A stretch of 64,000 nucleotides of DNA. It comes from Bacteroidota bacterium. GTDB taxonomy: Bacteria > Bacteroidota > Ignavibacteria > Kapaibacteriales > DASPKH01. Below the pieces are notes generated by a model. It was not told the DNA's origin and did no database searches. It was given only the letters and a program-made list of their open reading frames with translations. The stretch spans positions 19,251 through 83,250 of the forward strand of contig JAZKFS010000017.1 in assembly GCA_040386315.1 (NCBI GenBank). The letters run 5' to 3'. Position 1 is the first letter of the stretch; every line of letters starts with the position of its first letter. Made by a program: the position numbers and the translations under genes. Below are positions 1 through 64,000 of the stretch, in pieces.

Positions 1-1
1 T

Positions 2-130
2 GTTTTTGAAAATGTTGAAATCCCATTTATTGCCTTTGAAGATTTAATATCTGATAAACAGGCAAATGCCAGGATGAAAGATATTTCTGATATTCAACAT
101 CTCAAAATGAGCAAGAAAATGGGCGATTGA
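2..130 (+). CDS. 3' end (about 42 codons) of a gene starting upstream of the window; product unknown
   Basis: Open frame from window edge to TGA at 128-130 (…KDISDIQHLKMSKKMGD*), followed by hairpin plus T-run. Confidence 0.3.
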   Translation, partial: VFENVEIPFIAFEDLISDKQANARMKDISDIQHLKMSKKMGD

Positions 131-138
131 AATTTAAA

Positions 139-178
139 AGGATTTCTGTTTTAAAAAACGGAAATCCTTTTTTGTTTT
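139..178 (+). terminator. Rho-independent terminator-like hairpin (aggatttctg / cggaaatcct) with TTTTAAAAAA loop and T-run
   Basis: Inverted repeat at 139-168 followed by ttttttgtttt. Confidence 0.5.
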
Positions 179-2268: not shown

Positions 2269-2389
2269 GCTTTTTAAAATCTACGGAATTTCAATTTTTC
2301 TTTTTTAAAACTACGGAATGTTTTTAAAAGAAGTTTTAAAGCTTTTAAAAGTGTGGCAGGAAAAATAGTTTTTAAAAGAAGATAAGTTC

Positions 2390-4006
2390 TTACTTTTTAA
2401 AACGCTCAATAATTTTAAAAGCTGCCTGCGAACCATGCGCGAGCGCGCTTTCGATAGCGGGAGAGGAGTCGTTGTCAGTGTGGGCGAAGTAGATGTTCTG
2501 AATTTGCTGTGAAGCGGCTTGCGCAGGGCCATTATGCGAACCCGGTGTAGGTATCACCATGCTGTGCCCCCAGGCGAAACACTGGATTTCTTTTATGGCA
2601 GATTGAGCTTCGGCGCCGAGTGTTCGTGTCGCTTTGTCGGCAGCTTCGCGGGCAAAATTCGCAAAACTTTCGTTGTTTAAAAGCAGCGAGCGCTGAGCGC
2701 GTGGCAGCGGGGAATAGAGCGTATATACATAGGAATTTTCCGGGCGCATCGCCTTCGGGTACATCAGGTGCGGGCTGATGATGTCGCTGAAATGCGGTTC
2801 GGCGTCGAGCATCCATACGTCGAAAGCATCCGGCGGCATGAGTTCTTTTTCTGCGCAGAGTGAGATAGTCGCGTATGGCGCGTAGTGCATGGAGGCGATT
2901 GCGCTGCGCTGTTCGGTGCTCATTTCAGGAATGACGTATTGAGCGATATACTTCGGGAAAGCCATTACGGCGGCTTTTGCTTCAATTTTTACAAGCTCGT
3001 CATTGGCATTAATACATTCTACCGAAACACCAGTTGCAGTATTTTCCGTTTTAAAAACCACGTGCTCGTACAGGAAATACTGCTCGCCGATGATATTTGC
3101 AATTCCCTGCGTCAAGCGGTTCAATCCGCCTGCAAACGTGTAGCGGGGAACACCGAATTCCTCGCCAAATTCAGAAGAATAAAAGTTTAAAAAGCAGTAT
3201 GCGTTCGTTTCATTTGCCGGGGCGCCCATAGCCGAGAGCGAGTAGAGGTTCATCAGCTTTTGCAGGAAGGGCGAACGGTATTTCTGCATGAATGCTTCGG
3301 TCGTCATTGCGTCGAAGCTTTTTTCACTTCCGGTGAGATTTGCTTTTAAAGGATAGAGTGGCACATCCATTTTTAAAAGCTCGTCGCGGAAGCGCTTCAT
3401 TTCGCTTTTTTCAAGCGCGGAAAGCGGGAGAGAGTCCAGCGTGGAATTGCGCCAGGTGTTCGAGTAGAATTTTCCGTCAATATAGATCGCATCTTCCGGC
3501 ACTTTGATCGGGCGAACTCCCGCATCAGCTGACAACTCCTGCATGATGTCGGTATCATCCACGTAATACACCGAACCAAGCGGGAATTTTAAATCGTGCC
3601 ATTCGCCGCTCACGGCTGCTCCGCCCGGACGTGCCTCATTTTCAACAACTAATACATCGAAACCCTGCTTCTGGAGGATTCGCGCGGCGCTTAGTCCGGA
3701 CGGCCCGGCCCCGAGGATGACTACATCACATTTGCGTGTATTTGCGGCTGTGCCTTTTGGTTTGGAACCTTCGCGCAGATACGTATGCGCCTGTTTTGAG
3801 CGCTGCCCGGCAGTAGCGAGCCGGGGTTTATTGGGGGAAATTGCCTTCGGTTGGGAAATGTCCTTAAGTGGCTGTTTCTCATTACAGCCAAGCGAAGCCC
3901 CGAGGAATGTAGCTCCTGTGCCAAGTAGTGCTATTTTTAAAAAGTCGCGGCGGCTATTCACGGTGAAATTGTGGGATTTGCTTTTAAAAAAAGGAAGGGA
4001 AGCCAA
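2390..4006 (-). CDS. Tat-exported FAD-dependent oxidoreductase, flavin amine-oxidase family
   Basis: Twin-arginine motif SRRDFLKIALLGTGATFLGASLGC; Rossmann dinucleotide motif VVILGAGPSGLSAARIL…VLVVENEARPGG. Confidence 0.65.
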   Translation of the reverse strand: MASLPFFKSKSHNFTVNSRRDFLKIALLGTGATFLGASLGCNEKQPLKDISQPKAISPNKPRLATAGQRSKQAHTYLREGSKPKGTAANTRKCDVVILGAGPSGLSAARILQKQGFDVLVVENEARPGGAAVSGEWHDLKFPLGSVYYVDDTDIMQELSADAGVRPIKVPEDAIYIDGKFYSNTWRNSTLDSLPLSALEKSEMKRFRDELLKMDVPLYPLKANLTGSEKSFDAMTTEAFMQKYRSPFLQKLMNLYSLSAMGAPANETNAYCFLNFYSSEFGEEFGVPRYTFAGGLNRLTQGIANIIGEQYFLYEHVVFKTENTATGVSVECINANDELVKIEAKAAVMAFPKYIAQYVIPEMSTEQRSAIASMHYAPYATISLCAEKELMPPDAFDVWMLDAEPHFSDIISPHLMYPKAMRPENSYVYTLYSPLPRAQRSLLLNNESFANFAREAADKATRTLGAEAQSAIKEIQCFAWGHSMVIPTPGSHNGPAQAASQQIQNIYFAHTDNDSSPAIESALAHGSQAAFKIIERFKK

Positions 4007-6372: not shown

Positions 6373-6542
6373 GTGGTTTTTAAAAGATTTCTTCTACTTT
6401 TTTTCAGAATCTTTTAAAAATACGTAAAAATCTGAATTTTTAAAGCAGAGAGTTTTAAAAAGAAGAGAAATTATTGGAAAAGTTTGTTTTTATGCGCTTT
6501 TCAAGTAGAAAAATTTTAGAATATTAGCAAACTTTTTAAAAC

Positions 6543-6640
6543 TGTCATTCCGGCTCGCCCGGAATCTTTCTTCTTCGTTAAAACATCACGTTAGGTTCTT
6601 CTGACGTGGTAAGAAAGATTCCGGACAAGCCGGAATGACA
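6543..6640. repeat. Family-A palindromic interspersed element (arms tgtcattccggc(t/c)…ccggaatctttcttc)
   Basis: About 30-bp imperfect inverted arms around a ~40-bp centre; second copy at 42636-42767. Confidence 0.7.
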
Positions 6641-6652
6641 ATCTTTAAAAAA

Positions 6653-8383
6653 CTATTCAAGTAGCAATTTCCCGCTTTTAAAAACCTCACCGTCTTTTAA
6701 AAGCCGGTACACATACGCGCCTTTTGCCTTGCCGGATAGGTCAATCATTGCATCTGCTTCGGTGAGCTCCTTTTTAAAAACGGATTGTCCGTCGAGAGTG
6801 TAGATGGTGATAGTCCAGTTGCCGGGCTCAAGATTTGCAATGTGGAATTGGCTGGCTGTGGGGTTGGGGAAGATATTGGGTACACTCTCATTATGAAGCT
6901 CTGTAATATCTGTAATAGAAGTACCAAGCTTTGCGATAAAAACATTACCACTGCCAATCATATTACTTGGACCTTCACTACTTAAACTGTATTTCCCAAA
7001 ATTTATAATAGGACTGTCAAAAATTCCGGTAATATAAATATTAGAACTTGTATCTAACTCAATATCACCTAATCCTTCAAAACTATTCCCACCAACTGAC
7101 TTAGCCCACAAAACTTTTCCCTGAGTATCATATTTGACAATAAACAAATCCGAAGAACCAAATTTAGTATTATTCAATTCAATATTCCCAAAGATGATTT
7201 TACTAGAAAACCATCCACCTAAATAAACATTTCCCTCGTTATCGAAAGTAATATCACTACCGACATCACTTTCAGTACCACCAGTTGATTGTGCCCAAAT
7301 TTTATTTCCATCAACATCGTATTTTACTATAAAAATATCTTCTTTACCTGCATTGAATAATGTGTCATTTTCAATAGTGATGAAAGTATTGGAAAAATAG
7401 CCAGTAATATAAAAGTTATTGCTATTATCTATACCAATTCCAGCAGTATTATCATTTGCATAACCGCCGATTGATTTTGTCCATAGAACAGTACCTTTAG
7501 AATTAAATTTTGCAACAAAAATATCCATTGAACCGCCTGGAGTGTTGTTGAATATTGTGTCTGTTGCGAAATTTATAAAAGTGTTGCTAAAAGTACCTGC
7601 AACATAAATGTTCCCACTACTATCTGTAATAATGGCGTTCCCACTCTCGTGTTTTTCCCCACCTGCAGATTGTGCCCAAATAAAATTACCGTTAGAATCA
7701 TATTTTGCAATAAAAATGTCAGCATCCCCAGAATTGCTTAAAGTGGTTGTTCCAATCGTAATTGGATAGGTATGAAAAAATCCTGTTATATACACGTTTC
7801 TATTAGAGTCTACTGTAATACTGGAACCTTCATCGCCTCCTAAACCTCCTGCTGATTTCGCCCATAATGCATTACCATCAGTATCGTATTTTACAACAAA
7901 TATATCAGAAGTATTACTGTTGAAATTTTGTATTGTAATTCCTCCAAAAGTAATACTAGCTCCATAGAAAGTCCCTGTAATATAAATGTTTCTATCGGCA
8001 TCAGTTATTACACTATTACTCCGGCTACCTAAATTGTTGTCAATCGCAGATTTTACCCATAGCACATTCCCTTTTTTATCATATTTTACTAAAAAAAATG
8101 TACCATTATTATCCTGATTAGAACTATTTAAAGTAACATTTTCAAATGTAATTGATGAACTATTGAAATATCCGGTGACATATACATTGCCTTCATTATC
8201 GGTTGCTATACTATTTCCACAATCTCTTCTGTTTCCACCAGCCGATTTAGCCCACTCCCACTCAGGCGCCTGAGCAAAACTTTTAAAAGAAATAAAGCTC
8301 AAAAGCAAAACTGCACAGAAAAGAATTCGTTGTAGATTTTTCATAGAACCACTTTTAAAAGTATATGGTGAATGTTTCCCCAC
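6653..8383 (-). CDS. Secreted beta-propeller-repeat (SBBP-like) protein with T9SS C-terminal sorting domain (paralog 1)
   Basis: Signal peptide; about 10 repeats of WAKSAGG…D.G.SI..D..GN.YITG.F; C-terminal IFPNPTASQFHIANL…GAYVYRLLKDGEVFKSGKLLLE (Por secretion tail). Confidence 0.8.
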   Translation of the reverse strand: MGKHSPYTFKSGSMKNLQRILFCAVLLLSFISFKSFAQAPEWEWAKSAGGNRRDCGNSIATDNEGNVYVTGYFNSSSITFENVTLNSSNQDNNGTFFLVKYDKKGNVLWVKSAIDNNLGSRSNSVITDADRNIYITGTFYGASITFGGITIQNFNSNTSDIFVVKYDTDGNALWAKSAGGLGGDEGSSITVDSNRNVYITGFFHTYPITIGTTTLSNSGDADIFIAKYDSNGNFIWAQSAGGEKHESGNAIITDSSGNIYVAGTFSNTFINFATDTIFNNTPGGSMDIFVAKFNSKGTVLWTKSIGGYANDNTAGIGIDNSNNFYITGYFSNTFITIENDTLFNAGKEDIFIVKYDVDGNKIWAQSTGGTESDVGSDITFDNEGNVYLGGWFSSKIIFGNIELNNTKFGSSDLFIVKYDTQGKVLWAKSVGGNSFEGLGDIELDTSSNIYITGIFDSPIINFGKYSLSSEGPSNMIGSGNVFIAKLGTSITDITELHNESVPNIFPNPTASQFHIANLEPGNWTITIYTLDGQSVFKKELTEADAMIDLSGKAKGAYVYRLLKDGEVFKSGKLLLE

Positions 8384-8554
8384 AAATTACCTAAACCCCT
8401 TTTAAAAACCAAACTCCTCACCGCCCCAACTCAAACCGCCGCACCTTCGCCCCAAAGCTCTCTTTCGCCGGAGCTTTCCCGCTTTTAAAAACAAAAAGGG
8501 ACAAAGCTTTAAAAAACTCATATCCCTTTCTTTAAATTTACTGTAAAATCACCG

Positions 8555-10276
8555 TTACTCCACCACAATCTTCCCGCTTTTAAAAACCTCGCCATCTTTT
8601 AAAAGCCGGTACACATACGCGCCTTTTGCCTTGCCGGAAAGGTCAATCGTTGCATTTGCTTCGGTGAACTCCTTTTTAAAAACTGACTGCCCATCGAGTG
8701 TGTAGATGGTGATAGTCCAGTTGCCGGGAGAGAGGTTTGCAATGTGGAATTGGCTGGCTGTGGGGTTGGGGAAGATGGTGAGTGGTGTTATTGTAGATTT
8801 TTCTACAATAGAGGTAATTGTAGTGCTAAGCTTAGCTATAAACATACTTCCAGTAGATATAGCTGTAAGTGTGTCTGCCCCAAATGTAATGGGTTCCCTC
8901 ACAAAATAGCCGGTAATATAAGAATCTCCTTCCGGATCTACAGTAATATCACTAATCTCAGTACTACCATAATCAGAACCATTCCCATTAACCAGGGTAC
9001 CTACATAATTTGCCGAAATTGCGTCTCCTTCAGCGTCATATTTTACAATAAATGATTTTTCTGCATAAGAAGAAAATTGGGGAGGATTATTATTCACTAC
9101 AACACCGTCAAACGATATTGCCGGACTTTCGAAGCTACCGGTTACAAAAGCGTTTCCCTGGCTATCCGTGATAATATTTTTACTTACATCCCTCGAACTT
9201 CCGGTTGCTGAACGCGCCCATAACACATTGCCTGCCGAATCATGTTTCACGACAAAAACATCACGGCCGCCGCTATTATGTAAGGTATCACTTCCAAATG
9301 AAACTGTACTATCTGCGAACGAACCTGTTATGAATATATCGCCTTTATTACTAATGGAAATATCTGATATATAAGTTTTTTTATCGAAAGATTCAATCCG
9401 AATTCTATTCCCATTAGAGTCATACTTGATTATAGAAATCCCGTTATTTTCTAAAGGTATGCCATTTAAAGTGAGAGGATTGCTATTAAAGCTACCTGTA
9501 ATATAAACATTACTATTCTTATCTATAGCGATGTTATTAGCTTCATCGTAACCATCCCCACCTATAGACGTAGCCCACACAGCATTTCCTGAAGTATCAT
9601 ATTTTACAATAAAAATATCATTGGTGTGGTTTTGGGTTGAATTATTGGTCAATGTAGTTGCTCCGAAAGTAATGGCGCCCACACCGAAACTTCCGGTAAG
9701 ATAAACATTATTATTCTCGTCAGTGCCTATGGTTAGGCCTTTATCATCTTTGCTTCCTCCAGCTGACTTTGCCCAAAGTACATTTCCCTCAGGATCATAC
9801 TTTGCTATGAAAATGTCGTACTTTCCACTGCTATTGAGGACAGTGTTTCCAAATTCCAGAGTAGGGCTTTGAAAACTTCCCGTGATATATACATTTCCAT
9901 TATTATCTATCGCCAAGCCTGATGCGGCGTCAGTACCCTGACCTCCTACAGATTTAGCCCAAAGAACTGTACCCTGGGGATCATATTTTGCAATGAAAAT
10001 CTCCTGACTGTTACTATAATTAAACAGCAGAATATCCTCAAAATATATTGCATGAAGGGCATAGCTGCCAATTACATAAAGATTTCCACTCTTATCTATA
10101 GCGATATCATTTGCTCTATCCTCTCCGACTCCACCGGTTGTTTTCGCCCAATGCCAATCAAGGGATTGAGCTTGGATGCTTAGAGGATTCACTGTTGAAC
10201 CAATAAAAAGAACTGCATAAGTGATATACTGTAGGAAAGTTTTCATATTTTTTCCTCTAAATAAATACTGATTCAA
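8555..10276 (-). CDS. Secreted beta-propeller-repeat protein with T9SS C-terminal sorting domain (paralog 2)
   Basis: Same architecture as 6653..8383; C-terminal 70 aa nearly identical. Confidence 0.8.
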   Translation of the reverse strand: MNQYLFRGKNMKTFLQYITYAVLFIGSTVNPLSIQAQSLDWHWAKTTGGVGEDRANDIAIDKSGNLYVIGSYALHAIYFEDILLFNYSNSQEIFIAKYDPQGTVLWAKSVGGQGTDAASGLAIDNNGNVYITGSFQSPTLEFGNTVLNSSGKYDIFIAKYDPEGNVLWAKSAGGSKDDKGLTIGTDENNNVYLTGSFGVGAITFGATTLTNNSTQNHTNDIFIVKYDTSGNAVWATSIGGDGYDEANNIAIDKNSNVYITGSFNSNPLTLNGIPLENNGISIIKYDSNGNRIRIESFDKKTYISDISISNKGDIFITGSFADSTVSFGSDTLHNSGGRDVFVVKHDSAGNVLWARSATGSSRDVSKNIITDSQGNAFVTGSFESPAISFDGVVVNNNPPQFSSYAEKSFIVKYDAEGDAISANYVGTLVNGNGSDYGSTEISDITVDPEGDSYITGYFVREPITFGADTLTAISTGSMFIAKLSTTITSIVEKSTITPLTIFPNPTASQFHIANLSPGNWTITIYTLDGQSVFKKEFTEANATIDLSGKAKGAYVYRLLKDGEVFKSGKIVVE

Positions 10277-10442
10277 TAGTGGGCTATACTATATCCTTAC
10301 ATTAATTATACCATAACCACTGATTCATTTTTTTTATAATAAGCTGCCAGTCTAAGTCCTTATTTACCAAACTCTTGTTATTGCCTTTGTGTTTTCAGGA
10401 ATTAAAATCTTCTGTCTTTTTTACTAAACTGTTAAAAAAAAA

Positions 10443-10482
10443 AGTGTCAGATTATTTTCTCACTGTGAAAATAATCTGACAT
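10443..10482 (-). terminator. Strong hairpin (13-bp perfect stem tcagattattttc/gaaaataatctga) flanked by an A10/T-run
   Basis: Seen directly; downstream of the 10607..12307 gene on the minus strand. Confidence 0.6.
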
Positions 10483-10554
10483 AATTTTAAAAACCAAACC
10501 CCCATCACCGCCTCAACTCAAACCTTCGCTCCAAAGCTCTCTTTTAAAAACAAA

Positions 10555-10583
10555 AAAAGGCAGATCTTTTAAAAATCTGCCTT
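10555..10583 (-). terminator. Rho-independent terminator hairpin aaaggcagat-cttttaaaa-atctgccttt
   Basis: Perfect 10-bp stem with TTTTAAAA loop, 25 bp downstream of the paralog-3 stop. Confidence 0.6.
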
Positions 10584-10606
10584 TCCTTTTAAAATTCTAT
10601 CTATAA

Positions 10607-12307
10607 TTACTCCACCACAAGCTTCCCGCTTTTAAAAACCTCACCGTCTTTTAAAAGCCGGTACACATACGCGCCTTTTGCCTTGCCGGAAAGGTCAATC
10701 ATTGCATTTGCTTCGGTGAGTTCCTTTTTAAAAACGGACTGTCCGTCGAGTGTGTAGATGGTGATGGTCCAGTTGCCGGGCTCGAGATTTGTAATGTGGA
10801 ATTGGCTGGCTGTGGGGTTGGGGAAGATGTTTAATTGGGTTCCAGATTTTGGTTCTTTCTCAATTCCTGTTACTGGAAAATTCATCTTTGCAATAAAAAT
10901 ATCTGCAAGGTCGGTTTTTGAATTAGTTAAAGTTTTAGTTCCAAAATCCACATCGGAACTAAAGAAGCAACCTGTAATAAATATAGAACCTGAACTATCG
11001 GAAGTAATACCAAAACCAAAATCTGAGTTTGTACCACCAACTGACTTTGCAAGTAATATATTTCCAATTGAGTCATACTTTGCAATAAATATATCGTAAA
11101 AAATACCTTTCGTATTTATTAACTTAGTTGAACCCAGAGTGATAGATTGACCTGAGTAATATCCTACTACCCAAGGATGACCAGTAATATCCATATGAAT
11201 ATTATATCCCGATACATTCATATCTCCGGTTGTAGTATTTGCCCACTTAACTCCACCTGATGAGTCATATTTTACAATGAAATAATTAACAAGATAATTT
11301 GTATTATTTTCACTAGAGAAGGTTGAATCGCCGAAGCTAATAGATGTACCATAGAATTCACCGGTTAGATACACATTCCCGTTTTTATCAGCAGTAATTC
11401 CTCTGCTAAATATCATGCTGGTTTCTTTGCTATTTCCTCCGGCAGATTTTGCCCATTTTACTTGACCGTTACTGTCATACTTAACTATAAATAAATCATT
11501 TTTTCCACGACTTTGCAGTGTTATAGTGTCAAAAACAATAGAAGTATTTTTAAAATACCCGGTCACATAAATATTCCCAAAAGTATCAGTAGTAACATTT
11601 TGTGCTACACTTCCTGAAGATTCATCTGCTGAGTGTGCCCACTGCACATTACCATTTATATCATATTTCACTAAAAACATATTGTGATTATCCGCAGATG
11701 TTGTATCTCTCTTTAAAATAAAATTTCCAAAAGTTATTGTCTGACTTTTAAAATAGCCCGTTATATAAATATTTCCGACATTGTCCACGGCAGCATTAAA
11801 CGCAATATCAACACCATTTGAGCCTGCGGATTTAGCCCATATTACATTACCATTGATATCATATTTTGCTACAAATATATTTTCTTTTCCTGGCCATTCA
11901 TTTAATAAAGTAATATTGCCAAAAGTAATAGAAGGACTTTTGAAAATACCAGTAATATAAATATTACCAATTTTATCATATACTATACTATAGCTTTCAT
12001 CCAAGCTATCTCCACCTGCGGATCGTGCCCAAATTACATTCCCACTCTTATCATACTTCGCAATAAATACGTCTTCAGCACCCTTACCATTTAGAACAAA
12101 AGTCCCAAATGTTGCCGATGGACTTGTCATACGTCCGGTTATATAAAGATTGCCATCATTATCGGTAGTTGTACCATAGCTATAATCATTACCTTGCCCG
12201 CCTGCTGATTTTGCCCACTCCCATTCCTGCGCTTGAGCAAAGCTTTTAAAAGAAATAATATTTAAAAGAATCGCTATTGAGAAAAGAAGTTGTCTCAACT
12301 TTTTCAT
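10607..12307 (-). CDS. Secreted beta-propeller-repeat protein with T9SS C-terminal sorting domain (paralog 3)
   Basis: Same architecture; signal peptide MKKLRQLLFSIAILLNIISFKSFAQA. Confidence 0.8.
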   Translation of the reverse strand: MKKLRQLLFSIAILLNIISFKSFAQAQEWEWAKSAGGQGNDYSYGTTTDNDGNLYITGRMTSPSATFGTFVLNGKGAEDVFIAKYDKSGNVIWARSAGGDSLDESYSIVYDKIGNIYITGIFKSPSITFGNITLLNEWPGKENIFVAKYDINGNVIWAKSAGSNGVDIAFNAAVDNVGNIYITGYFKSQTITFGNFILKRDTTSADNHNMFLVKYDINGNVQWAHSADESSGSVAQNVTTDTFGNIYVTGYFKNTSIVFDTITLQSRGKNDLFIVKYDSNGQVKWAKSAGGNSKETSMIFSRGITADKNGNVYLTGEFYGTSISFGDSTFSSENNTNYLVNYFIVKYDSSGGVKWANTTTGDMNVSGYNIHMDITGHPWVVGYYSGQSITLGSTKLINTKGIFYDIFIAKYDSIGNILLAKSVGGTNSDFGFGITSDSSGSIFITGCFFSSDVDFGTKTLTNSKTDLADIFIAKMNFPVTGIEKEPKSGTQLNIFPNPTASQFHITNLEPGNWTITIYTLDGQSVFKKELTEANAMIDLSGKAKGAYVYRLLKDGEVFKSGKLVVE

Positions 12308-12399: not shown

Positions 12400-14079
12400 T
12401 CACCGCCCCAACTCAAACCTCCGCACCTTCGCCCCAAAGCTCTCTTTTCCCAACGCTTTCCCGCTTTTAAAAACATACTTTTTAAAAAGCCGCGCTTTGG
12501 CTTCATGCCACGAGAAGCCCCCGAAATTCACCGCCCACCAGAATAGCCCGCGCGCGCCGTGCTGCTCAAAGAGGATATTGTACGACGTCGGGTGCAGCTT
12601 CGGCACCGCCTGCATTACGTCCTGGTACGACCGCCACGTGACCGTATCGCGAAAAATCTCCTCGCCGATATGCCGCGGCACACGATACAGCACGTCCATG
12701 AACATGTTCATCGCGGAGTTCACCGCGCTCGGCTTGTAATGCTTTTTGCCCACGAGGAACGCCGCGAAATTCGCCATGAGCGACACGTGCGGCTCGTACG
12801 CGTTTATCTTTTTTAAAAACCGTTCTTTAAAAAGTCCATCGTCCAGCGCCGTTTTTAAAAGCGTCGTCGTCCGCTCCAGATTCCGCACAAAACTCCCGAA
12901 ACCGCAGTACGTAAGCGGGGAAGACAGCGCCGCCGCATCGCCAAGCGAAATCACATTGTCGCCCGCCGTCCTGCGCACATTGCTCAAACCCGCGTGGAGA
13001 ATGGACGGAATCACGCCAAACGCCGGACGCCCGATGTCAAAATTCTCGTCCGGTTTTTTGTAATCGTGCAGTGTTTTAAAATAGATCTCGTAGAGATTGA
13101 GGAGCGATTTGTCGCGCTCAGAGTTGATTTCATCATAAAAAAACAGGTACGTCACATATTCCGTCCCGCCACTCGGGAAACCTTCCCAAATGAGCTGCCG
13201 CCCCGTTTCGTCCGCGTCGCCGAGCGTCACGAGGATTTCGCCGATGGAATAATCCACTTCATCGCGCGCAGTGCCTTCTTTAAAATTTTTGGAAATCGCG
13301 CCAACCGTCGGGCAGCAATGCGAAAACGGATTTTTTGGATTTAAAAACCGCGCAATCGGCGAAAACGCGCCCATCATATCTATCAGCACACGGCTTTTTA
13401 AAAGCTCCGTTTTTCCCTCGCGCTCAATCTCCGTCACTGCCCATTCGCCATTCGTGTACGCCTTTTTAAAAGCCGCGCCGTCGAGCATTTCGCCGCCCGC
13501 AGCCAGCAGTTTTTCACGCGCCATTTTTAAAAGCTCATTCGCGCTCACGGCCACGTCCAGCACATTTTCAAACCACAGCGGCTCGGCGTGATAGTCCGCA
13601 TTTTCATCAAAAAACTTCACAAAACCGCCGCGATATTTCCGCACGACAATCCGCTGCAACTCATCCTCCGTCAGGAAACCAATCTCCACGAGCCGCCGCA
13701 GCTCCGGCATCGAAATATTCCAGTCGCGATGCGTAATGCCCACCGTAAACCTGTCAAAAACCAGCACCCGCTTTTTAAAAACGTGCGCCATCACCGCCGC
13801 GTGAAGCGTTGCCAGCCCGCCGCCCGCATACACGAGGTCGTATTCCGCCGTTGATTTTTTAAAAACATCATCAGGAATCTTTTTAAAAATCACCTGCTCA
13901 GGTTTCGCCTCAGCGCGCGCCTTCCACGAGGAGTCCAGCGCCACCAGCCGTTCAAACCAGTACGCGCCGTCCTCCAGCACGCGGAAATTCTTCACCGTGA
14001 GCGGATGCGTCGCCTCGTACTTTTTTAAAAGCGATTCGTCGCCGTGCAGGTTTTGTATATCGTGGGAGCAGGTATTCAT
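12400..14079 (-). CDS. FAD-binding oxidoreductase (lycopene-cyclase / geranylgeranyl-reductase-like fold), function unknown
   Basis: DLVYAGGGLATLHAAVM dinucleotide-binding motif about 90 aa from the N-terminus; 559 aa. Confidence 0.45.
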   Translation of the reverse strand: MNTCSHDIQNLHGDESLLKKYEATHPLTVKNFRVLEDGAYWFERLVALDSSWKARAEAKPEQVIFKKIPDDVFKKSTAEYDLVYAGGGLATLHAAVMAHVFKKRVLVFDRFTVGITHRDWNISMPELRRLVEIGFLTEDELQRIVVRKYRGGFVKFFDENADYHAEPLWFENVLDVAVSANELLKMAREKLLAAGGEMLDGAAFKKAYTNGEWAVTEIEREGKTELLKSRVLIDMMGAFSPIARFLNPKNPFSHCCPTVGAISKNFKEGTARDEVDYSIGEILVTLGDADETGRQLIWEGFPSGGTEYVTYLFFYDEINSERDKSLLNLYEIYFKTLHDYKKPDENFDIGRPAFGVIPSILHAGLSNVRRTAGDNVISLGDAAALSSPLTYCGFGSFVRNLERTTTLLKTALDDGLFKERFLKKINAYEPHVSLMANFAAFLVGKKHYKPSAVNSAMNMFMDVLYRVPRHIGEEIFRDTVTWRSYQDVMQAVPKLHPTSYNILFEQHGARGLFWWAVNFGGFSWHEAKARLFKKYVFKSGKALGKESFGAKVRRFELGR

Positions 14080-14175: not shown

Positions 14176-14289
14176 AATTCCCCTCCTCGGAGGGGTGCCC
14201 GCAGGGCGGGGAGGGTTACGCCAAAAGGACGCGCCATGCCACCGCCGAACCCTCCCCGGCCTATGGCCGCCCCTCCGAGGAGGGGAATT
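14176..14289. repeat. Family-B nested palindromic element (aattcccctcctcggaggggtgccc … gccgcccctccgaggaggggaatt)
   Basis: Terminal 16-bp hairpins cccctcc-NN-ggagggg at both ends plus an inner ggggagggtt/aaccctcccc inverted pair; second copy at 43960-44074. Confidence 0.75.
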
Positions 14290-14300
14290 AATTTTTTAAA

Positions 14301-14430
14301 CCTCATACTGAGCGGCGTCGAAGTATGAGCGCGTCAGAAGTTCGCGTCAGGTTTTTAAAAGCATTGTTAAACTCACCAGACCTGTTGGAAATTTCGTGCT
14401 TCGACGGCGCTCAGCATGAAATTTTGAATG
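14301..14430. repeat. Family-C palindromic element (catactgagcggcgtcgaagtatga … tcgtgcttcgacggcgctcagcatg)
   Basis: About 25-bp inverted arms around a centre containing gcgtcagaag…tttttaaaag; second copy at 48544-48678. Confidence 0.75.
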
Positions 14431-46285: not shown

Positions 46286-46292
46286 AAGACAT

Positions 46293-48678: not shown

Positions 48679-48703
48679 AAAAAGACTTTAATAGATAATC
48701 TGA

Positions 48704-49498: not shown

Positions 49499-50555
49499 CG
49501 TAAAAACGCTGTATGATGAAGCGGTGGAACTGCTGCAAAATCTTATCGCAATTCCGTCCTTCAGCCGCGAAGAAAACCTGACTGCCGACCTGCTGGAAAA
49601 CTTTTTAAAAAGGAAAAATATCGAGGTTGAGCGCAAGGGAAATAATGTGTGGGCGCGGAATAAATATTTTGATGTTTTAAAACCGACGATCCTTTTAAAC
49701 TCGCATCACGACACGGTCAAGCCAAATCCTGCGTACACGCTGGACCCATTTACCCCAATTGTAAAAGACGGAAAATTATACGGCCTGGGAAGCAATGATG
49801 CGGGCGCTTCGCTTGTGTCGCTTTTGGCAACATTCCTGTACTTTTTTAAAAAGGAATATCTCTCACATAATTTCATTTTTGCAGCAAGCGCGGAAGAGGA
49901 AATTTCGGGTGCAAATGGCATTGAATCCATTATTTCCGAGCTTGGAAAAATTGACCTCGCTATCATCGGCGAGCCAACGCAGATGCACCTTGCGATTGCC
50001 GAAAAAGGTTTACTCGTGCTGGACTGCATTGCTCACGGGAAAGCCGGACACGCCGCGCGCGAGGAAGGCGACAATGCGATTTACAAAGCTTTAAAAGATA
50101 TTGAGTGGTTTCGCACGTTTCAATTTCCGAACGTTTCTGAAGCGCTCGGGCCTGTGAAAATGACGGTGACGGTGGTTCAGGCGGGCGCCCAGCACAACGT
50201 CGTTCCGGCGGAATGTCGCTTTACGGTGGATGTTCGCTGCACGGACGCGTATTCGCACGAGGATGTTTTAAAAATTATCCGCGAGCACGTCAGCGCCGAA
50301 GTTCAGCCGCGTTCCATGCGTTTAAAACCGTCGTCCATTCCGAAAGAACATCCGTTCGTGCAGGTGGGAATTGCTTTAAAAAGAAAAACTTATGGCTCGC
50401 CGACGACATCCGATCAGGCGCTCATGCCGTACACGTCGGTGAAAATCGGGCCTGGTGATTCTGCGCGCTCGCACACGTCGGACGAGTTTGTTTTCCTGCA
50501 TGAAATTGAGGAAGGAATTTCGCTCTATATTCAGCTAATTTCTGCGATCCTTTAA
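49458..50555 (+). CDS. argE: M20-family deacylase (acetylornithine deacetylase / succinylornithine desuccinylase)
   Basis: HHDTV, GSNDAGAS, GEPT and E/H metal-ligand pattern; overlaps the argB 3' end. Confidence 0.75.
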   Translation: MSKMKMQQQNLSPDVKTLYDEAVELLQNLIAIPSFSREENLTADLLENFLKRKNIEVERKGNNVWARNKYFDVLKPTILLNSHHDTVKPNPAYTLDPFTPIVKDGKLYGLGSNDAGASLVSLLATFLYFFKKEYLSHNFIFAASAEEEISGANGIESIISELGKIDLAIIGEPTQMHLAIAEKGLLVLDCIAHGKAGHAAREEGDNAIYKALKDIEWFRTFQFPNVSEALGPVKMTVTVVQAGAQHNVVPAECRFTVDVRCTDAYSHEDVLKIIREHVSAEVQPRSMRLKPSSIPKEHPFVQVGIALKRKTYGSPTTSDQALMPYTSVKIGPGDSARSHTSDEFVFLHEIEEGISLYIQLISAIL

Positions 50556-50594
50556 AACTTTAAAAACTCCTTTTAAAACCATCACATTTTAAAA

Positions 50595-51859
50595 ATGAAA
50601 CTCTGGCAAAAAGAAACGTCGGCTGCAAATGATTTCGCTGCAATAATCGAAGAATTCACCGTCGGGAAAGACCGAGAACTTGACCTTTTGCTTGCAGAAC
50701 ACGACGTGATTGGTTCACTCGCGCACACGCAAATGCTGGAGAGTATTGGCCTGCTGACAAGCGCAGAATTGACAGAAATCCACCGCGAACTGAACGCAAT
50801 TTTAAAAGAAATCCGTGCGGGAAATTTTAATTTATGCTCACGCAGCGCATCGGCGACGTGGGCAAAAAAATCCACAGCGGACGTTCGCGCAATGACCAGG
50901 TTTTACTTGATATAAAGCTGTTTTTGCGCGCCGCGCTTTTAAAAATGTCGCAGGAAATTAATGCACTGTTTTTAAAACTTTTGGAATTAAGCGAAGCGCA
51001 CAAAGACGCGCTGCTGCCGGGTTACACGCATTTCCAGATCGCAATGCCGTCGTCGTTTGGGCTGTGGTTTGGCGCGTATGCCGAGGGCCTGGTGGACGAT
51101 ATGGAATTCGTGCAGGCGGCGTATAATATATGCGACAAAAACCCGCTCGGTTCCGGCGCGGGCTACGGTTCGTCCTTCCCACTGAACCGCGAAATGACGA
51201 CGGAGCTGATGTCTTTTAAAAGCATGAATCACAACGTCGTGTATGCGCAAATGACGCGCGGCAAAAGCGAAAAATCCGTTGCCATGGCGCTCTCATCCGT
51301 TGCCGCGACGCTTTCAAAATTTGCGTACGACGTGTGCCTGTACATGAGCCAGAACTTCGGTTTTATCACGTTCCCAGACGAACTCACGACCGGCTCCAGC
51401 ATCATGCCGCACAAAAAAAATCCCGATGTTTTCGAGCTCATCCGCGCAAAATGCAACCGCATCCAGGCGCTGCCGAACGAGCTCACGCTGCTCATCAACA
51501 ACCTGCCCAGCGGCTACCACCGCGACATGCAGCTCACAAAAGAAATCCTCTTTCCCGCACTTGCCGATATGCACGCGTGCCTGCGCGTCGCCGAATTTAT
51601 GCTCCGCCACATAATCGTGAAAAATGACATCCTCAGCGACGAAAAATACGCGCATCTTTTCAGCGTCGAGCGCGTGAACGAGCTGGTTTTAAAAGGCACC
51701 CCATTCCGCGACGCCTACCGCATAGTTGGGCAGGAAATCGCCGACGGCACTTTTAAAACGCAACCCACCGTCAACCACACGCACACCGGCAGCATCGGTA
51801 ATTTGGGCAACGATCAGATCAAAAAATCAATGGAAAAATTCGCCCATCTCACAAAGTAA
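50595..51859 (+). pseudogene. argH: Argininosuccinate lyase disrupted by an internal deletion/frameshift (ORFs 50595..50915 and 50834..51859)
   Basis: N-terminal ORF matches the ArgH start (MKLWQKE…LAHTQMLESIGLL…). The second ORF carries GKKIHSGRSRNDQV and the fumarate-lyase signature (GSSIMPHKKNPD). About 12-14 residues expected before …LTQRIGDVG are missing and the frame shifts. Confidence 0.8.
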
Positions 51860-53764: not shown

Positions 53765-55903
53765 ATGGCGAAAAAAAATGAAAAACCCGCAACTGATAAT
53801 AAGAAAGTTCGCGATTTGGCGGTCAATACTGAGGAGAGTTCAGGCGAATTCCTAACAACGAATCAGGGCGTGCGCATTAATGACAACCAGAATTCTTTAA
53901 AAGCTGGCGAGCGCGGCCCAACGCTGCTGGAAGATTTTATTTTCCGTGAGAAAATGACGCATTTCGACCACGAGCGTATTCCGGAGCGTATTGTTCATGC
54001 GCGTGGTGCGGCGGCGCACGGATTTTTCCAGGTGTATGAGTCTATGGCAAAATACACGAAAGCGGGATTTCTGCAAGACCCATCTTTAAAAACACCTGTT
54101 TTTGTGCGGTTCTCGACTGTTGCGGGTTCGCGCGGCTCAACTGATTTGGCTCGCGATGCGCGTGGTTTTGCTGTGAAATTTTATACCGAAGAAGGAAATT
54201 ATGATCTTGTGGGAAATAATATCCCGGTCTTTTTTATCCAGGATGCGATGAAATTTCCCGACCTTGTTCATGCTGTAAAACCCGAGCCGCATAATGAAAT
54301 TCCGCAGGCGGCGGCGGCGCACGATACATTCTGGGATTTTATTTCGCTTATGCCCGAGTCTATGCACATGATCTTCTGGGCGATGAGCGACCGTGCTATT
54401 CCGCGCAGCTACCGCATGATGGAGGGTTTTGGCGTTCACACGTTCCGATTCATCAATGAGGAAGGCAAAGGCCGTTTTGTAAAATTCCACTGGAAGCCGC
54501 TTTTGGGTGTGCATTCAGTCATGTGGGACGAAGCGACACGTATTTCCGGCAAAGACCCTGATTTCCACCGTCGCGACCTGTGGGAAGCAATTGAAAATGG
54601 CGATTTTCCTGAATATGAGCTGGGCGTGCAAATCGTGGAGGAAGATGACGAGCACAAGTTTGAATTCGACCTGCTCGACCCGACGAAAATCATTCCCGAA
54701 GAGCTCGTTCCTGTGCAGCGCATCGGCAAAATGACGCTGAATCGCAATCCGGACAACTTTTTTGCTGAAACTGAGCAGGTTGCATATCATCCCGGACACG
54801 TCGTTCCCGGTATTGATTTTACGAATGACCCGCTCTTGCAGGGACGGCTATTTTCCTATGTAGATACGCAGCTGAAGCGCCTCGGCGGGCCAAACTTCCA
54901 TGAAATTCCTATCAACCGTCCTGTAGCGCCAGTGCATAATAACCAGCGCGACGGCCACATGCGCCAGACAATCAATAAAGGCAAAACTGCATACGACCCG
55001 AACACAATTTCAAGCGGCTGCCCGTTCCAAGCGAAAGCGGCGCAGGGCGGTTTCGTGAGCCATACAGAACGAATTGACGCGCAGAAAATCCGTGCCCGTA
55101 GCGATAGTTTCCGCGACCATTTCAGCCAGGCGACGCTTTTTTATAACAGCCAAGCGGAACATGAAAAAAATCATATCGTAGACGCTTTTAGCTTTGAGCT
55201 AGGCAAGGTGGAATCTGTAGAAATCCGCCAGCGTATGATTGGATTAATTTCACAGGTGGATAAAGCCCTGGCGAAAAAAGTTGCGGATAAGCTCGGGCTG
55301 GATGTTTTAAAACCGGAAGAGCCAATGAACCGTTCATTCGGCGCCGATACCGACCCGAAATCTGTTCAGCCGGTAAAAGCAAAATCTTCGATTAAAGAAT
55401 CTGCCGCGTTGAGTATGGACAATACGAAAAAAGATTCCATCAAAACACGGAAAGTCGCTGCGCTGATCGCTGATGGCTTCAACGGCGACGAACTGAACGC
55501 AATGAAAAAAGCTTTAAAAGCAGAAGGCGCAATGCTGAAAACCGTTGCAACGCGGCTCGGCATGATAAAAAGCGCAAGCGGAGAAGAAGTAAAAGCCGAT
55601 TTTAGCTTTTTCACAACGGCTTCTGTTTTATTTGATGCAGTGTACGTGCCGGGCGGCGCTAAAAGCATCACGGCTTTAAAAGGCGAAGCCGACGCGTATC
55701 ATTTCGTTGACGAAGCTTTTAAACATTGCAAAGCGATCGCTGCAACAAGCGAAGGCGCAGACTTTATCGCTGATACATTTGCCGGAAAAGCAAAAGATGA
55801 TAAAGCGGTCATTATAGGAAAAAACATCGAAAAAGATTTTATAAAAGCAATTGCTCAGCATCGCAATTGGGAACGCGAAAAAGCGAGAAAAATCCCGGCG
55901 TAG
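53765..55903 (+). CDS. katE: Large-subunit catalase HPII with C-terminal DJ-1/PfpI-like domain
   Basis: FDHERIPERIVHARGAAAHGFF catalase signature, heme-pocket motifs, 712 aa. Confidence 0.9.
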   Translation: MAKKNEKPATDNKKVRDLAVNTEESSGEFLTTNQGVRINDNQNSLKAGERGPTLLEDFIFREKMTHFDHERIPERIVHARGAAAHGFFQVYESMAKYTKAGFLQDPSLKTPVFVRFSTVAGSRGSTDLARDARGFAVKFYTEEGNYDLVGNNIPVFFIQDAMKFPDLVHAVKPEPHNEIPQAAAAHDTFWDFISLMPESMHMIFWAMSDRAIPRSYRMMEGFGVHTFRFINEEGKGRFVKFHWKPLLGVHSVMWDEATRISGKDPDFHRRDLWEAIENGDFPEYELGVQIVEEDDEHKFEFDLLDPTKIIPEELVPVQRIGKMTLNRNPDNFFAETEQVAYHPGHVVPGIDFTNDPLLQGRLFSYVDTQLKRLGGPNFHEIPINRPVAPVHNNQRDGHMRQTINKGKTAYDPNTISSGCPFQAKAAQGGFVSHTERIDAQKIRARSDSFRDHFSQATLFYNSQAEHEKNHIVDAFSFELGKVESVEIRQRMIGLISQVDKALAKKVADKLGLDVLKPEEPMNRSFGADTDPKSVQPVKAKSSIKESAALSMDNTKKDSIKTRKVAALIADGFNGDELNAMKKALKAEGAMLKTVATRLGMIKSASGEEVKADFSFFTTASVLFDAVYVPGGAKSITALKGEADAYHFVDEAFKHCKAIAATSEGADFIADTFAGKAKDDKAVIIGKNIEKDFIKAIAQHRNWEREKARKIPA

Positions 55904-55926
55904 TTTTTAAAAGAAATTAGTTTTTA

Positions 55927-55965
55927 AAAAGGTCAGTCTTTTAAAAAAGGGCTGGCCTTTTTTGT
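55927..55965 (+). terminator. Terminator-like hairpin (aaggtcag…ctggcctt) plus T-run after katE
   Basis: 8-bp stem with one G·U pair, then ttttttgttttt. Confidence 0.5.
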
Positions 55966-62178: not shown

Positions 62179-62278
62179 TAAAGACTGGAATTCTTTTTAA
62201 AAGCCGTAGTTTTAAAAGATTTTATTCATGCTTTTTTAAAAGTATTTATAGAGAGGTTCTTCTGTGCCGGACGTCAAT

Positions 62279-64000
62279 ATGCAGGCAAAAATCAGGCAAT
62301 TAGAAAAGCAAATTGAAAAAGCAAAAAACAATGATGAAAAAGTTTTGCTGCTGCTTTCCATGAGCGCTTTGGTGAAACGCTCCGATGTTCGCCTTGCAGA
62401 AGAAAAAGGATATGAGGCGCTTGAGATTGCAAGGCGTAGCGATAATCTGCATAATCTTGGTAGAGCATTATATTTTCTGGCAGATATAAATAATAATGTA
62501 AAAACGGATACTGAAAAAGCGCTGGAATTGGCCCTGGAAGCGATGGAATATTTTTTAAAAGCTAACGACAATAGCTACATTAGCCGTACGCTGGGGATGA
62601 TAGGCCGTATTTACACGAATCGCTCGGAATTTTTAAAAGCGCATGAATATCTTTTAAAAGGCCTTGAAATTGCTATTGTCTCCGGCGATGCAGATTGTAT
62701 CCATACGGCTCATAATAGGCTTGGCATGTATTACCATCACCACGGTGAATACGATGCGGCGATCCGCGAGCAGGAGTTCGCACTTCAGGCAGCCAGATCA
62801 ATGAATAATATACCTGTCATGGCCTCTGTTTTAAACAATCTTTCGCTTTCATATCTCGATGGTGGTAATTATGCACAGGCGTATAAATATGCTGCTGAAA
62901 GCCTCCTGATGCGGCAAAACACAGATGATATTACAGGCATTTCTAATTGCCATATAGCTCTTGCGCTTGTCCTTATACGTTTTAATGATTATGAAAAAGC
63001 ACTTGAGCATTTGTACAAAGCGTTGGCGCTCCGGCGCGGAATAGCTGATAATGCGCTAACTGCCCGGATTCTTTTTTATATCGGTGGTATATATTTTGAT
63101 CGCGCCCAATTCCGTCCGGCACTGGAAGAATTCCTGAAGTCAAAGGAATTACTTGATGGCTTTCACCATCCGATCACGGAATTAAATACTCTGCTCTATA
63201 TCGGTGCATCCAAGTCTGAACTTGGTGATGTACACGGAGGCATAAAAGATATAGAACACGCATATCGCAAACTAACAGAGCTTCAGGATATTAAATATAT
63301 TTCTCAGGCATGTTGCCATTTTGCCGCAGTATATAGAAAAGCCGGTGAAAATAACACTTCATTGTTTTATGGATTGAAAGGAATACGTGCCGGCTACGCA
63401 TCAAATTTTAAAGAAGCTCTTATAAAAAATTATCTTGAATTAGCTATTACCTACAATCAAAACAATCAGTTTTTAAAAGCGCAGAAAGCTGCTTCAAAAG
63501 CTGCCGCAATAGCCGAAGAATGTAATAATAAAGAACTTCTGCCAAAAGCTTTTAAAATCCTGGCTGAATCATATTTGCAGGGTAACGATTTTCAGAAATC
63601 CGTGAATTTTTATAAACGGTATGTAGAAGCAAAGGAAGAGTTTGTAAATGACTGTACAAACCACAAAATTCAAACGCTTCTTGTTGAATTCGATGTAGAG
63701 CAAATGAAGCACGAAGCAGAAATAAACAAACTGAAATCAGAACAATACGAGCGGGAGCTTGCTTTGAAAAATAAGGAATTAACAACATTAGCGTTGCACC
63801 TTGTCAACAAAAACGAGTTTTTAAAAACAATCGGCGACCAGATCTCCGAAGATGTTTCCAATACAAGTCAGATTATTAAAAATCTTTCAAAACTTGTAGA
63901 AAACGACGCAAACACAGAAGCCGAATGGAAGCTTTTTGAAAAGCAGTTTATACAGGTAAATCCTGATTTTACCACACGTCTTGCTGAAACATCAGGCGAA
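62279..64000 (+). CDS. TPR-repeat regulator (probably C-terminal LuxR-type HTH); 3' end beyond the window
   Basis: Repeated …LNNLS…Y..A… TPR units, a coiled coil, then …TLALHLVNKNEFLKTIGDQI…FEKQFIQVNPDFTTRLAE…, typical of Bacteroidetes TPR/HTH regulators; no stop before 64000. Confidence 0.6.
   Translation, partial: MQAKIRQLEKQIEKAKNNDEKVLLLLSMSALVKRSDVRLAEEKGYEALEIARRSDNLHNLGRALYFLADINNNVKTDTEKALELALEAMEYFLKANDNSYISRTLGMIGRIYTNRSEFLKAHEYLLKGLEIAIVSGDADCIHTAHNRLGMYYHHHGEYDAAIREQEFALQAARSMNNIPVMASVLNNLSLSYLDGGNYAQAYKYAAESLLMRQNTDDITGISNCHIALALVLIRFNDYEKALEHLYKALALRRGIADNALTARILFYIGGIYFDRAQFRPALEEFLKSKELLDGFHHPITELNTLLYIGASKSELGDVHGGIKDIEHAYRKLTELQDIKYISQACCHFAAVYRKAGENNTSLFYGLKGIRAGYASNFKEALIKNYLELAITYNQNNQFLKAQKAASKAAAIAEECNNKELLPKAFKILAESYLQGNDFQKSVNFYKRYVEAKEEFVNDCTNHKIQTLLVEFDVEQMKHEAEINKLKSEQYERELALKNKELTTLALHLVNKNEFLKTIGDQISEDVSNTSQIIKNLSKLVENDANTEAEWKLFEKQFIQVNPDFTTRLAETSGE

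Follow-up and report, generated by a model that had tools for sequence, protein, structure and literature searches.

The sequence analysed here is a 64,000-base stretch of contig JAZKFS010000017.1 (hereafter the window), which has a GC content of 43.3% and carries the palindromic octamer TTTTAAAA (abbreviated as T4A4) in large numbers. The gene calls, which were open reading frames (ORFs) backed by domain hits, comprised 50 ORFs covering 87.5% of the window. Identifiable genes were serS, an arginine biosynthesis cluster, katE, ald, and a DEAD-box helicase gene, together with the genes for three tandem beta-propeller proteins sorted by the type IX secretion system (T9SS) and for sensor kinases with tetratricopeptide (TPR) repeats. 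No Rfam matches were obtained within the window. In the first-pass annotation, the octamer had been proposed as a genome signature similar to the highly iterated palindromes (HIPs) of cyanobacteria and as the product of an active process rather than of chance. The data used to follow up this proposal were the 64 kb of the source genome and about 40 kb of DNA from a sister genome, that is, one genome pair. No earlier description of T4A4 as a genome signature or iterated palindrome was found in the literature searched, which consisted mostly of open-access papers and preprints.

With overlapping occurrences included, T4A4 was found 276 times in the window, corresponding to one copy per 232 bases or 4.3 copies per kb. 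It was the most frequent 8-mer, the runners-up were shifted versions of it, and blocks of at least four T followed by at least four A made up 4.0% of all bases in the window. Markov models of order 0, 1, 2, and 3 predicted 2.7, 11.6, 17, and 37.6 copies, respectively, and a background from which the motif had been masked predicted 6.6 (order 1), 9.9 (order 3, analytic), or 10.7 copies (order 3, simulated). The excess was therefore 104-fold over order 0 and 26- to 42-fold over the masked background, which bears out the earlier estimate by eye of hundreds of copies in place of a handful. Models of order 4 to 6 gave observed/expected ratios of 1.0 to 1.8 because their training data include the overlapping subwords of the motif, whose signal they absorb; they were replaced by the motif-masked and codon-aware nulls. 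The reverse arrangement AAAATTTT (A4T4) was present in 12 copies, T8 in 6, and A8 in 19.

Synonymous codons were shuffled within genes, which preserves both the protein and the codon usage, and 21.0 ± 3.8 coding copies were expected (maximum 32 in 300 shuffles) versus 170 observed (z = 39). Shuffling of the codon order gave 5.8 ± 2.3 copies. The synonymous shuffle and the coding and non-coding counts were based on a refined gene set, and the codon-order shuffle on the first gene set. In the non-coding segments, base shuffling predicted 1.5 ± 1.2 copies versus the 102 that lie wholly in non-coding DNA. The ratio thus remained far from 1 in both of the comparisons that had been advised, with a third-order Markov model and with a codon-shuffled null. 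The excess fell with the mismatch load, from 26-fold for the exact octamer to 2.5-, 1.1-, and 0.9-fold for one, two, and three mismatches, respectively; a similar gradation has been reported for uptake sequences and HIP1 (PMC1939737).

A position matrix extending to ±20 around the 276 copies contained no information past positions ±1 to 2, which ruled out a longer hidden element. At position -1, T was found in 131 copies, C in 86, G in 40, and A in 19, and position +1 mirrored this pattern, so that A is disfavoured before the octamer and, symmetrically, T after it; the 10-bp form is Y-T4A4-R. A palindrome longer than 8 bp was rejected, as the bases at -1 and +1 were independent of each other (C...G pairs, 23 versus about 26 expected). 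This flank rule held in intergenic DNA (8.6% A at -1) as well as in either coding frame, and it was symmetric whatever the direction of transcription. The lengths of the T-run and A-run at the junction peaked at T4-5/A4-5 (72, 54, 56, and 38 for the four combinations) and T3A3 was present in only 15 copies, indicating that the unit requires four or more T and then four or more A. The first-pass annotation had laid stress on an extended T5A5 form, which turned out to be a minority (59 of the 276 copies); the actual rule is Y-T4A4-R.

One-base variants were concentrated at the outer positions, with 110 in total, including CTTTAAAA (41) and TTTTAAAG (27). Those at positions 2 and 7 totalled 19, and C/G substitutions there were at or below expectation. 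The variants of HIP1 are likewise concentrated at its first and last positions (PMC4390886), and the resemblance is only partial because central-position variants of T4A4 were also moderately enriched. Bare TTTAAA without the outer T and A was not enriched (15 observed versus about 14 expected). A restriction target is a site avoided in the host genome; here the full octamer was massively enriched and the bare hexamer neutral.

The 170 copies in coding sequence corresponded to 3.0 per kb, and the 106 copies that lie outside genes or straddle a gene end to 13.3 per kb; about 38% of the copies fell in the 12.5% of the window that is non-coding. None of the coding copies was read as TTT-TAA, whereas 106 were read as xTT-TTA-AAA and 64 as xxT-TTT-AAA-A, in agreement with the prediction that only the two frames lacking a stop codon would be used. 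Leu-Lys was spelled TTA-AAA in 139 of 168 cases, although TTA accounts for 20% of Leu codons, and Phe-Lys was spelled TTT-AAA in 91 of 99 cases. Of the LK dipeptides, 60% lay within a full octamer, as did 65% of the FK dipeptides. The translations had been described as rich in these dipeptides, and both were indeed about 1.5 times as frequent as expected, with a larger excess for the tripeptides [FLIV]LK (113 versus 31.5 expected, 3.6-fold) and FK[IMTNKSR] (71 versus 26). The ratio of the two frames (106/64) matched the ratio expected from LK and FK (117/68), and translation therefore seems not to choose between them. In five genes, the stop codon overlapped or directly adjoined a copy of T4A4.

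The slippery heptamers of -1 frameshifting follow the pattern X_XXY_YYZ. The commoner coding frame reads U_UUA_AAA and fits this pattern at its 106 sites, about two per gene, with no avoidance in frame use. In addition, six intrinsic terminators carried U4A4 at the tip of the hairpin stem, as confirmed by folding. Both observations would suit a signal acting at the level of RNA or translation, with UUUUAAAA being cleaved by an RNase, forming part of a terminator, or causing ribosomes to slip into another frame. However, the terminators hold only about 6 of the 106 non-coding copies, the flanks are symmetric regardless of the direction of transcription, the use of frames merely mirrors the availability of dipeptides, and an RNA signal has no need for a DNA palindrome, so that this explanation is highly improbable. 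The annotation had placed the motif in intergenic DNA and in terminator loops; the former was correct, and the latter are real but account for this small share. Hairpin context was rejected as a general feature, as perfect flanking stems of at least 6 bp occurred at 3 of the 276 copies, equal to the null. Because the flanks are symmetric in every context and the use of frames follows the LK and FK frequencies, the results point to symmetric recognition of double-stranded DNA by a symmetric (dimeric) factor, and not to an RNA or protein signal.

Next, relatives of the source genome were examined for the motif. Among 5.8 billion proteins, the closest SerS, and the only close one, was P0001 (91% identity), which is encoded on DASPKH010000206.1 (L001; assembly GCA_035628175.1), the sister genome. 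This contig contained 69 copies in 21 kb, and T4A4 was again the top 8-mer. A metagenome scan with a terminator-shaped pattern retrieved four contigs from one JGI sample (40-44% GC, 2.1-3.9 copies per kb). One of these (L213) was 99.96% identical to L001, and the larger contigs L225 and L226 matched neither the window nor L001 and carried genes for a class II aminoacyl-tRNA synthetase, ClpB, and OmpA. The density in the sister genome was 3.2-3.9 copies per kb, including these contigs with housekeeping genes from elsewhere; as L225 and L226 represent other regions of the genome, the signature extends across the whole genome of the sister species, at least. The four assemblies of this genome did not differ over the stretch that they share.

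In contrast to the sister genome, eight more distant relatives (SerS identity 60-72%, GC 31-64%) had no copies, except for one with two. Their loci were L082, L084, L085, L086, L207, L235, and L234, with L083 as a second contig having the same SerS as L082. L235 has a GC content of 44.4%, the same as that of the motif-rich genomes, and was devoid of the motif over 14 kb. The 79 loci from other phyla all fell well short of the density of the window. SerS relatives at 65-72% identity were labelled Candidatus Kapabacteria, Kapaibacterium, or Chlorobi. In the public record, L001 is labelled "Patescibacteria group bacterium"; this label is probably wrong because of these SerS relatives and because the related window encodes T9SS-sorted proteins, which point to the Fibrobacterota-Chlorobiota-Bacteroidota (FCB) group.

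The origin of the sites was investigated by alignment. The four motif sites of SerS encode AFKN, LLK, FLK, and VLK, at which about 70 outgroup proteins mostly have AARN, LVA/LIA, MLA/LLQ, and VLR, respectively, and all four copies were common to the window and the sister genome. As the outgroup proteins do not have the LK and FK residues, the motif has cost amino acid replacements, at moderately variable positions. SerS of the window and P0001 contained 7-8 LK/FK dipeptides, most relatives contained 1-4, and the AT-rich outlier P0074 contained 6. The region 33875-42493 of the window is syntenic with L001, with 77% DNA identity in the aligned blocks, and 17 of its 33 copies and 17 of the 28 in L001 stood in the same alignment column. 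Unshared copies faced sequences that were one or two substitutions away (TTTTACAA, TTTTAAGA, TTTTCAAA, and similar), without insertions or deletions. These alignments indicate that the sites are made in place by point substitution, wherever constraint allows.

Perfect conservation was observed for 52% of T4A4 columns, versus 21% for other 8-mers, 24% for 8-mers with at least seven A/T, and 27% for A/T-only 8-mers. The motif was thus kept 2.5 times more often than controls (Fisher p 9e-5 to 8e-4, for 33 sites in one genome pair) in this comparison of orthologous positions, which the first-pass annotation had advised. The results showed that the pressure on the genome also maintains the motif.

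A trivial cause, namely composition, codon usage, the footprint or target-site duplication of a mobile element, or an assembly or adapter artefact, was refuted by these tests, and the probability left to it is practically nil. In its favour, the window contains short repeats that resemble miniature transposons, one of them with T5A4 at its centre. However, the codon-aware and masked nulls failed by 8- to 26-fold, the density of the motif rises with GC, and a relative of the same GC has none. The copies have no conserved flank, no insertions or deletions were found at sites that differ between the species, and all genic copies were in frame and aligned with normal residues of the orthologues. 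The artefact that the annotation had named as an alternative fell as well, since the window sequence recurs in the independent Logan assembly L081 and the independently assembled sister genome reproduces the signal. Accordingly, the excess is not attributable to chance, to base composition or codon usage, to a longer mobile element, or to an assembly artefact.

A process that creates sites by substitution, as observed here, could be a mutational ratchet of the type proposed by Elhai, in which an orphan methyltransferase, probably forming N6-methyladenine (m6A), marks TTTAAA or T4A4 and methylation-aware repair pulls near-matches to the full site as a neutral by-product with no role in uptake. 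TTTAAA is the site of DraI, and the palindromic octamer thus contains a known restriction-type hexamer. The outward bias of the one-base variants described above, with inner C/G substitutions at or below expectation, is as in HIP1, and the density is highest where constraint is weakest. Against this, bare TTTAAA is not enriched and no m6A-directed repair system that creates sites is known. Moreover, the only well-understood ratchet of this kind is the repair of T:G mismatches from deaminated 5-methylcytosine (m5C), and because the motif contains no cytosine, such repair cannot act here or be the cause of the sites. On balance, this explanation is unlikely.

The distribution along the window was also analysed. 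Neighbouring copies showed no 10-11 bp phasing, and pairs within 30 bases numbered 47 versus 44.7 ± 5.5 expected. The search for spacing periodicity advised in the annotation was therefore negative at short range in the 64-kb window, and no clustering was detected beyond the difference in density between coding and non-coding DNA. This bears on the possibility that the copies are architectural sites under selection, bound by a lineage-specific nucleoid-associated protein or acting as a mechanical TpA hinge between A-tracts, and organising the chromosome. The symmetric recognition, the conservation above background, and the strong contrast between 12 copies of AAAATTTT and 276 of TTTTAAAA, two sequences that differ in intrinsic bending, would fit such a role. 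In Hagerman's work, repeats of A4T4 were reportedly curved and those of T4A4 not. A nucleoid-structuring role has also been proposed for HIP1 (PMC5861425). However, nucleoid proteins usually tolerate degenerate sites, whereas the excess here drops from 26-fold to 2.5-fold with one mismatch, there is neither regular spacing nor phasing, and the fourfold non-coding excess fits placement wherever it is cheap better than architectural placement. An architectural function is accordingly considered unlikely.

Copy counts per gene were over-dispersed (p = 2e-7), and the motif density rose with gene GC (rho 0.46, p = 0.0045). Genes of at least 42% GC contained 134 copies versus 0.8 predicted from composition, and genes below 42% GC contained 15 versus 1.1. 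The AT-rich, motif-poor genes are candidates for recent acquisition, among them the WG-repeat gene. The annotation had reported the motif inside GC-rich conserved genes, which held for the arg genes and serS, whereas katE is depleted; this scarcity of copies reflects either recent acquisition or a strongly constrained protein. The seven copies that it had counted within 2268-2420 were all confirmed, at 2272, 2303, 2322, 2343, 2370, 2395, and 2413. The features are listed in Table 1.

Table 1. Positions of motif-bearing and motif-poor features in the 64-kb window
Feature	Position	Strand	Observation
Densest cluster	2272-2420		Seven copies; spacer between two minus-strand genes and first codons of gene 2390-4006
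serS	35523-36809	-	Four in-frame copies at 35577, 36093, 36255, and 36506, encoding VLK, FLK, LLK, and AFKN
argG, argC, argD, argF, argB, argE-like, argH	44122-51859	+	42-53% GC; 3-8 in-frame copies each
ATPase/TPR gene	31399-33783	-	Most copies of any gene: 15 versus 7.2 expected from the coding average
Gene without assigned function	12400-14079	-	54% GC; 12 copies versus 5.1 expected
WG-repeat protein gene	15849-17813	-	37% GC; 0 copies versus 6.0 expected
katE (large-subunit catalase)	53765-55903	+	Motif-poor; 1 copy versus 6.5 expected
ald (alanine dehydrogenase)	41287-42402	-	0 copies
Intergenic region	42403-42942		7 copies; the four nearest ald kept in the sister genome, as is the intervening sequence
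Intrinsic terminator hairpin	10552-10588	-	T4A4 at stem tip
Similar terminator hairpin	~136-177	+	
Similar terminator hairpin	20344-20378	-	
Similar terminator hairpin	22178-22208	-	
Similar terminator hairpin	35479-35506	-	
Similar terminator hairpin	55926-55962	+	

The ald gene was compared with its counterpart in the sister genome (L001, 2031-3146). The proteins were 99.2% identical and the DNA 89% identical, and the neighbouring orthologues were 56-91% identical in protein; this comparison indicates that ald is under very strong purifying selection. Such constraint is the likelier reason for the absence of copies, since it seems to leave the motif no room. The difference between the DNA and protein identities of ald also provides a rough measure of synonymous divergence.

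Scarcity of the motif in AT-rich, probably foreign genes and its high density everywhere else could also be expected of a Chi-like or defence-related marker of self, which would halt a nuclease or helicase (of the RecBCD/AddAB type or of a new defence system) so that motif-poor phage or plasmid DNA is destroyed. The Chi sites known to date lack symmetry, are recognised on single-stranded DNA, and follow the orientation of replication, whereas T4A4 is a perfect palindrome with symmetric flanks and thus has no defined orientation. No such system was encoded in the sequence examined. Scans of viral contigs for motif clusters, which are blind to motif-avoiding phage, gave AT-rich chance matches, one unrelated promoter-like motif, and no informative phage among the matches listed. 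This marker function is thus very unlikely. The promoter-like motif occurs in L176, an IMGVR_UViG contig of 29% GC with 42 T4A4 copies in 9.9 kb, which lie within a conserved intergenic motif of about 25 nt (...GAAAAWTNNTAATTTTTAAAAAYTAAA...ATTGTA); it looks like a viral promoter and a phenomenon different from the host-wide signature.

Several other features were observed in the window. The argH gene is seemingly split into two ORFs in overlapping frames (50595-50915 and 50834-51859). The match of the second ORF to the lyase profile is confined to positions 100-311, the N-terminal part lies in another frame, and the join at about 50825-50835 appears without the usual segment before the conserved GRSRNDQ motif; the split could result from an assembly error or, if argH is a pseudogene, from a frameshift or deletion. 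A GC-rich palindromic repeat of about 115 bp is present in two intergenic copies (14176-14289 and 43960-44074) and absent from L001; its arms, AATTCCCCTCCTCGGAGGGG...GGGGAGGGTT, are 79-88% complementary, and it resembles a REP (repetitive extragenic palindromic) element or a miniature transposon. A second repeat of about 125 bp (~14303-14425 and 48548-48672; 87% mean column identity) also resembles a miniature transposon; it ends in inverted repeats (CATACTGAGC..CGTCGAAGTATGA), and T5A4 is conserved at its exact midpoint. A third inverted-repeat element is found in two intergenic regions (6533-6650 and 42584-42820), its arms consisting of CTGTCATTCCGGCTYGYCCGGAATCTT and the complement.

Related leader sequences are present at 28186-28225, 36810-36845, and 46286-46320. 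serS and a DinB-like gene share one of about 25 nt (ACGAGTTACCAGTCACAAATCAC-type, with short direct repeats) immediately before their start codons, the related GATTCGTAAATCGT is repeated twice before argD, and no Rfam match was obtained. The three tandem T9SS-sorted beta-propeller genes (6653-12307) are paralogues with SBBP repeats that share a 235-nt 3' block (86-91% identical) and contain a 62-nt internal repeat in 17 copies, and their downstream spacer is duplicated together with its motif copies. At about 42-44 kb, gene orientation and GC skew switch sign, with mostly minus-strand genes to the left (34746-35471 and 38266-39327 being plus) and mostly plus-strand genes to the right. A replication origin at the switch (~43 kb) was rejected, as the skew follows gene orientation and no DnaA-box cluster was found; for the latter reason, the switch is probably a boundary of divergent transcription.

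The results showed that T4A4, in the form Y-T4A4-R, is a lineage-specific highly iterated palindrome of an uncultured Kapabacteria-like bacterium of the FCB group, and that a genome-wide directional pressure writes it wherever constraint allows, even at the cost of additional amino acid replacements. The proposal of a HIP-like signature arising from an active process thus survived the codon-aware and masked nulls, and it is further backed by the rise of density with GC, by the same-GC relative without copies, by the positions shared with the sister species, and by the forced replacements. Symmetric recognition of double-stranded DNA, in-place substitution, maintenance, and the absence of cytosine narrow the processes suggested in the first-pass annotation, although none is proven by them.

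The most likely role of T4A4, to which we assign a probability of roughly 0.4, is that of a tag of self DNA for uptake and/or recombination that is spread by molecular drive and possibly m6A-methylated, by analogy to the uptake sequences of Neisseria and Haemophilus and to the current interpretation of HIP1. The tag would bias DNA uptake and/or recombination, and alleles carrying it would be preferentially re-incorporated, which constitutes the molecular drive. It might be read in an m6A-methylated state, produced by an orphan methyltransferase acting on the inner TTTAAA, and the flexible TpA step between the two A-tracts could suit the kinking and handling of DNA during uptake. This reading is suggested by the non-coding excess, the copies in terminators, the permissive coding sites, the absence from likely foreign genes, and the sharing by sister species. 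There is a precedent in Campylobacter jejuni, which takes up only DNA methylated at RAATTY (PMC10046745).

Several points weigh against the uptake tag. No competence gene, DNA methyltransferase, or candidate reader was found in the window or in the approximately 40 kb of sister DNA (L001, L225, and L226), and the mechanistic step is therefore purely inferential. At 4.3 copies per kb, the motif is about four times as dense as uptake sequences or HIP1, and it is shorter than known uptake sequences and, unlike them, palindromic. To our knowledge, no member of this bacterial class has been demonstrated to be naturally transformable. Conservation above background would be expected under selection and under an ongoing neutral drive alike, and gains cannot be distinguished from losses in a single species pair that has no close outgroup. 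Slow decay of a relic signature is nevertheless unlikely because retention is above average.

It is also conceivable, but doubtful, that a previously unknown system of sequence-directed gene conversion or repair writes the exact A/T-only octamer independently of cytosine methylation, deamination, and uptake. If so, its drive would saturate about 60% of the usable codon slots and override the protein sequence. Such a system would be of recent origin in one narrow Kapabacteria-like lineage, so that the gene or genes behind it could be located by comparison with sister genomes free of the motif, and it could explain how HIPs in general arise.

Whichever process is at work, two motif-rich species beside motif-free sister clades provide a contrast that could help to find the responsible gene set, whether it encodes a methyltransferase, a repair system, a nucleoid protein, or a receptor for uptake. 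The 3.6-fold excess of [FLIV]LK illustrates the reach of a DNA-level drive in reshaping proteins. In practice, the motif offers a sharp criterion by which contigs of this lineage can be binned and foreign genes flagged, and it would be a rational addition to DNA constructs if these organisms are ever transformed.

T4A4 was finally compared with known systems. REP elements, bacterial interspersed mosaic elements (BIMEs), and miniature transposons such as the Rickettsia palindromic elements, which occur inside genes too, are likewise repeated palindromic DNA. However, they are 20-150 nt long, conserved, and spread by insertion, whereas T4A4 has no conserved flanks and its sites differ by substitutions. 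Chi is similar in being a short over-represented native motif that distinguishes self DNA in recombination; it differs in being asymmetric, confined to one strand, oriented with replication, and far less dense, whereas T4A4 is a symmetric palindrome.

The DNA uptake sequences (DUS) of Neisseria and uptake signal sequences (USS) of Pasteurellaceae share more features with T4A4. They are short exact motifs with an excess graded by mismatch load (PMC1939737), their non-coding copies exceed the genome share, and some copies lie in transcription terminators. Their genic copies are found in permissive frames and positions, as T4A4 is at variable positions of SerS, and alter the encoded peptides; they show no strand bias and are common to related species. 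They differ in being 9-12 nt long, not palindromic, and present about once per kb, versus an 8-bp palindrome with symmetric flanks, and their function has been demonstrated experimentally in naturally competent hosts, whereas the likeness of T4A4 is one of genomic pattern. The methylated RAATTY of C. jejuni is the best precedent for a cytosine-free palindrome as a tag, since it is an A/T-only palindrome that marks self DNA for uptake when its adenine is methylated (PMC10046745). Unlike T4A4, it is a hexamer with degenerate positions, which the AT richness of the genome already makes frequent, and the part of the source consulted does not document a hyper-accumulation against composition like that of T4A4.

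The closest likeness is to HIP1 (GCGATCGC) and the alternate HIPs, which are also perfect palindromic octamers and the commonest 8-mers of their genomes (PMC5861425, PMC4390886, PMC3497702). HIP1 exceeds expectation by tens- to hundreds-fold in coding and non-coding DNA alike, its positions are kept between related genomes more than those of control octamers, and it is poor in likely foreign genes. Its inner hexamer is also a restriction-type site (PvuI CGATCG in HIP1; DraI TTTAAA in T4A4), and single-base deviations from it cluster at its two outermost positions, a feature shared in part by T4A4. T4A4 shows the hallmarks of a HIP, being a palindromic top octamer that is at least 15-fold over-represented, with an excess in coding and non-coding DNA beyond codon usage and with positional conservation. 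Unlike HIP1, however, it consists of A and T only and has no cytosine, no m5C chemistry, and no GATC core. Its host belongs to another phylum (FCB/Kapabacteria-like) and a narrow lineage, with two species so far and absence from sister clades, and its density is about 4.3 versus about 1 per kb for HIPs (PMC4390886). The link of HIPs to methylation is defined by cognate methyltransferases, whereas T4A4 is known from its pattern in the DNA. HIP1 has awaited an explanation for about 30 years, and every HIP known until now is GC-rich, cyanobacterial, and tied to cytosine methyltransferases; T4A4 provides a second test case. As an independent, cytosine-free, and about fourfold denser case in another phylum, it indicates that HIPs are not a peculiarity of cyanobacteria or of m5C, and it rules out the repair of deamination as a general explanation of HIPs.

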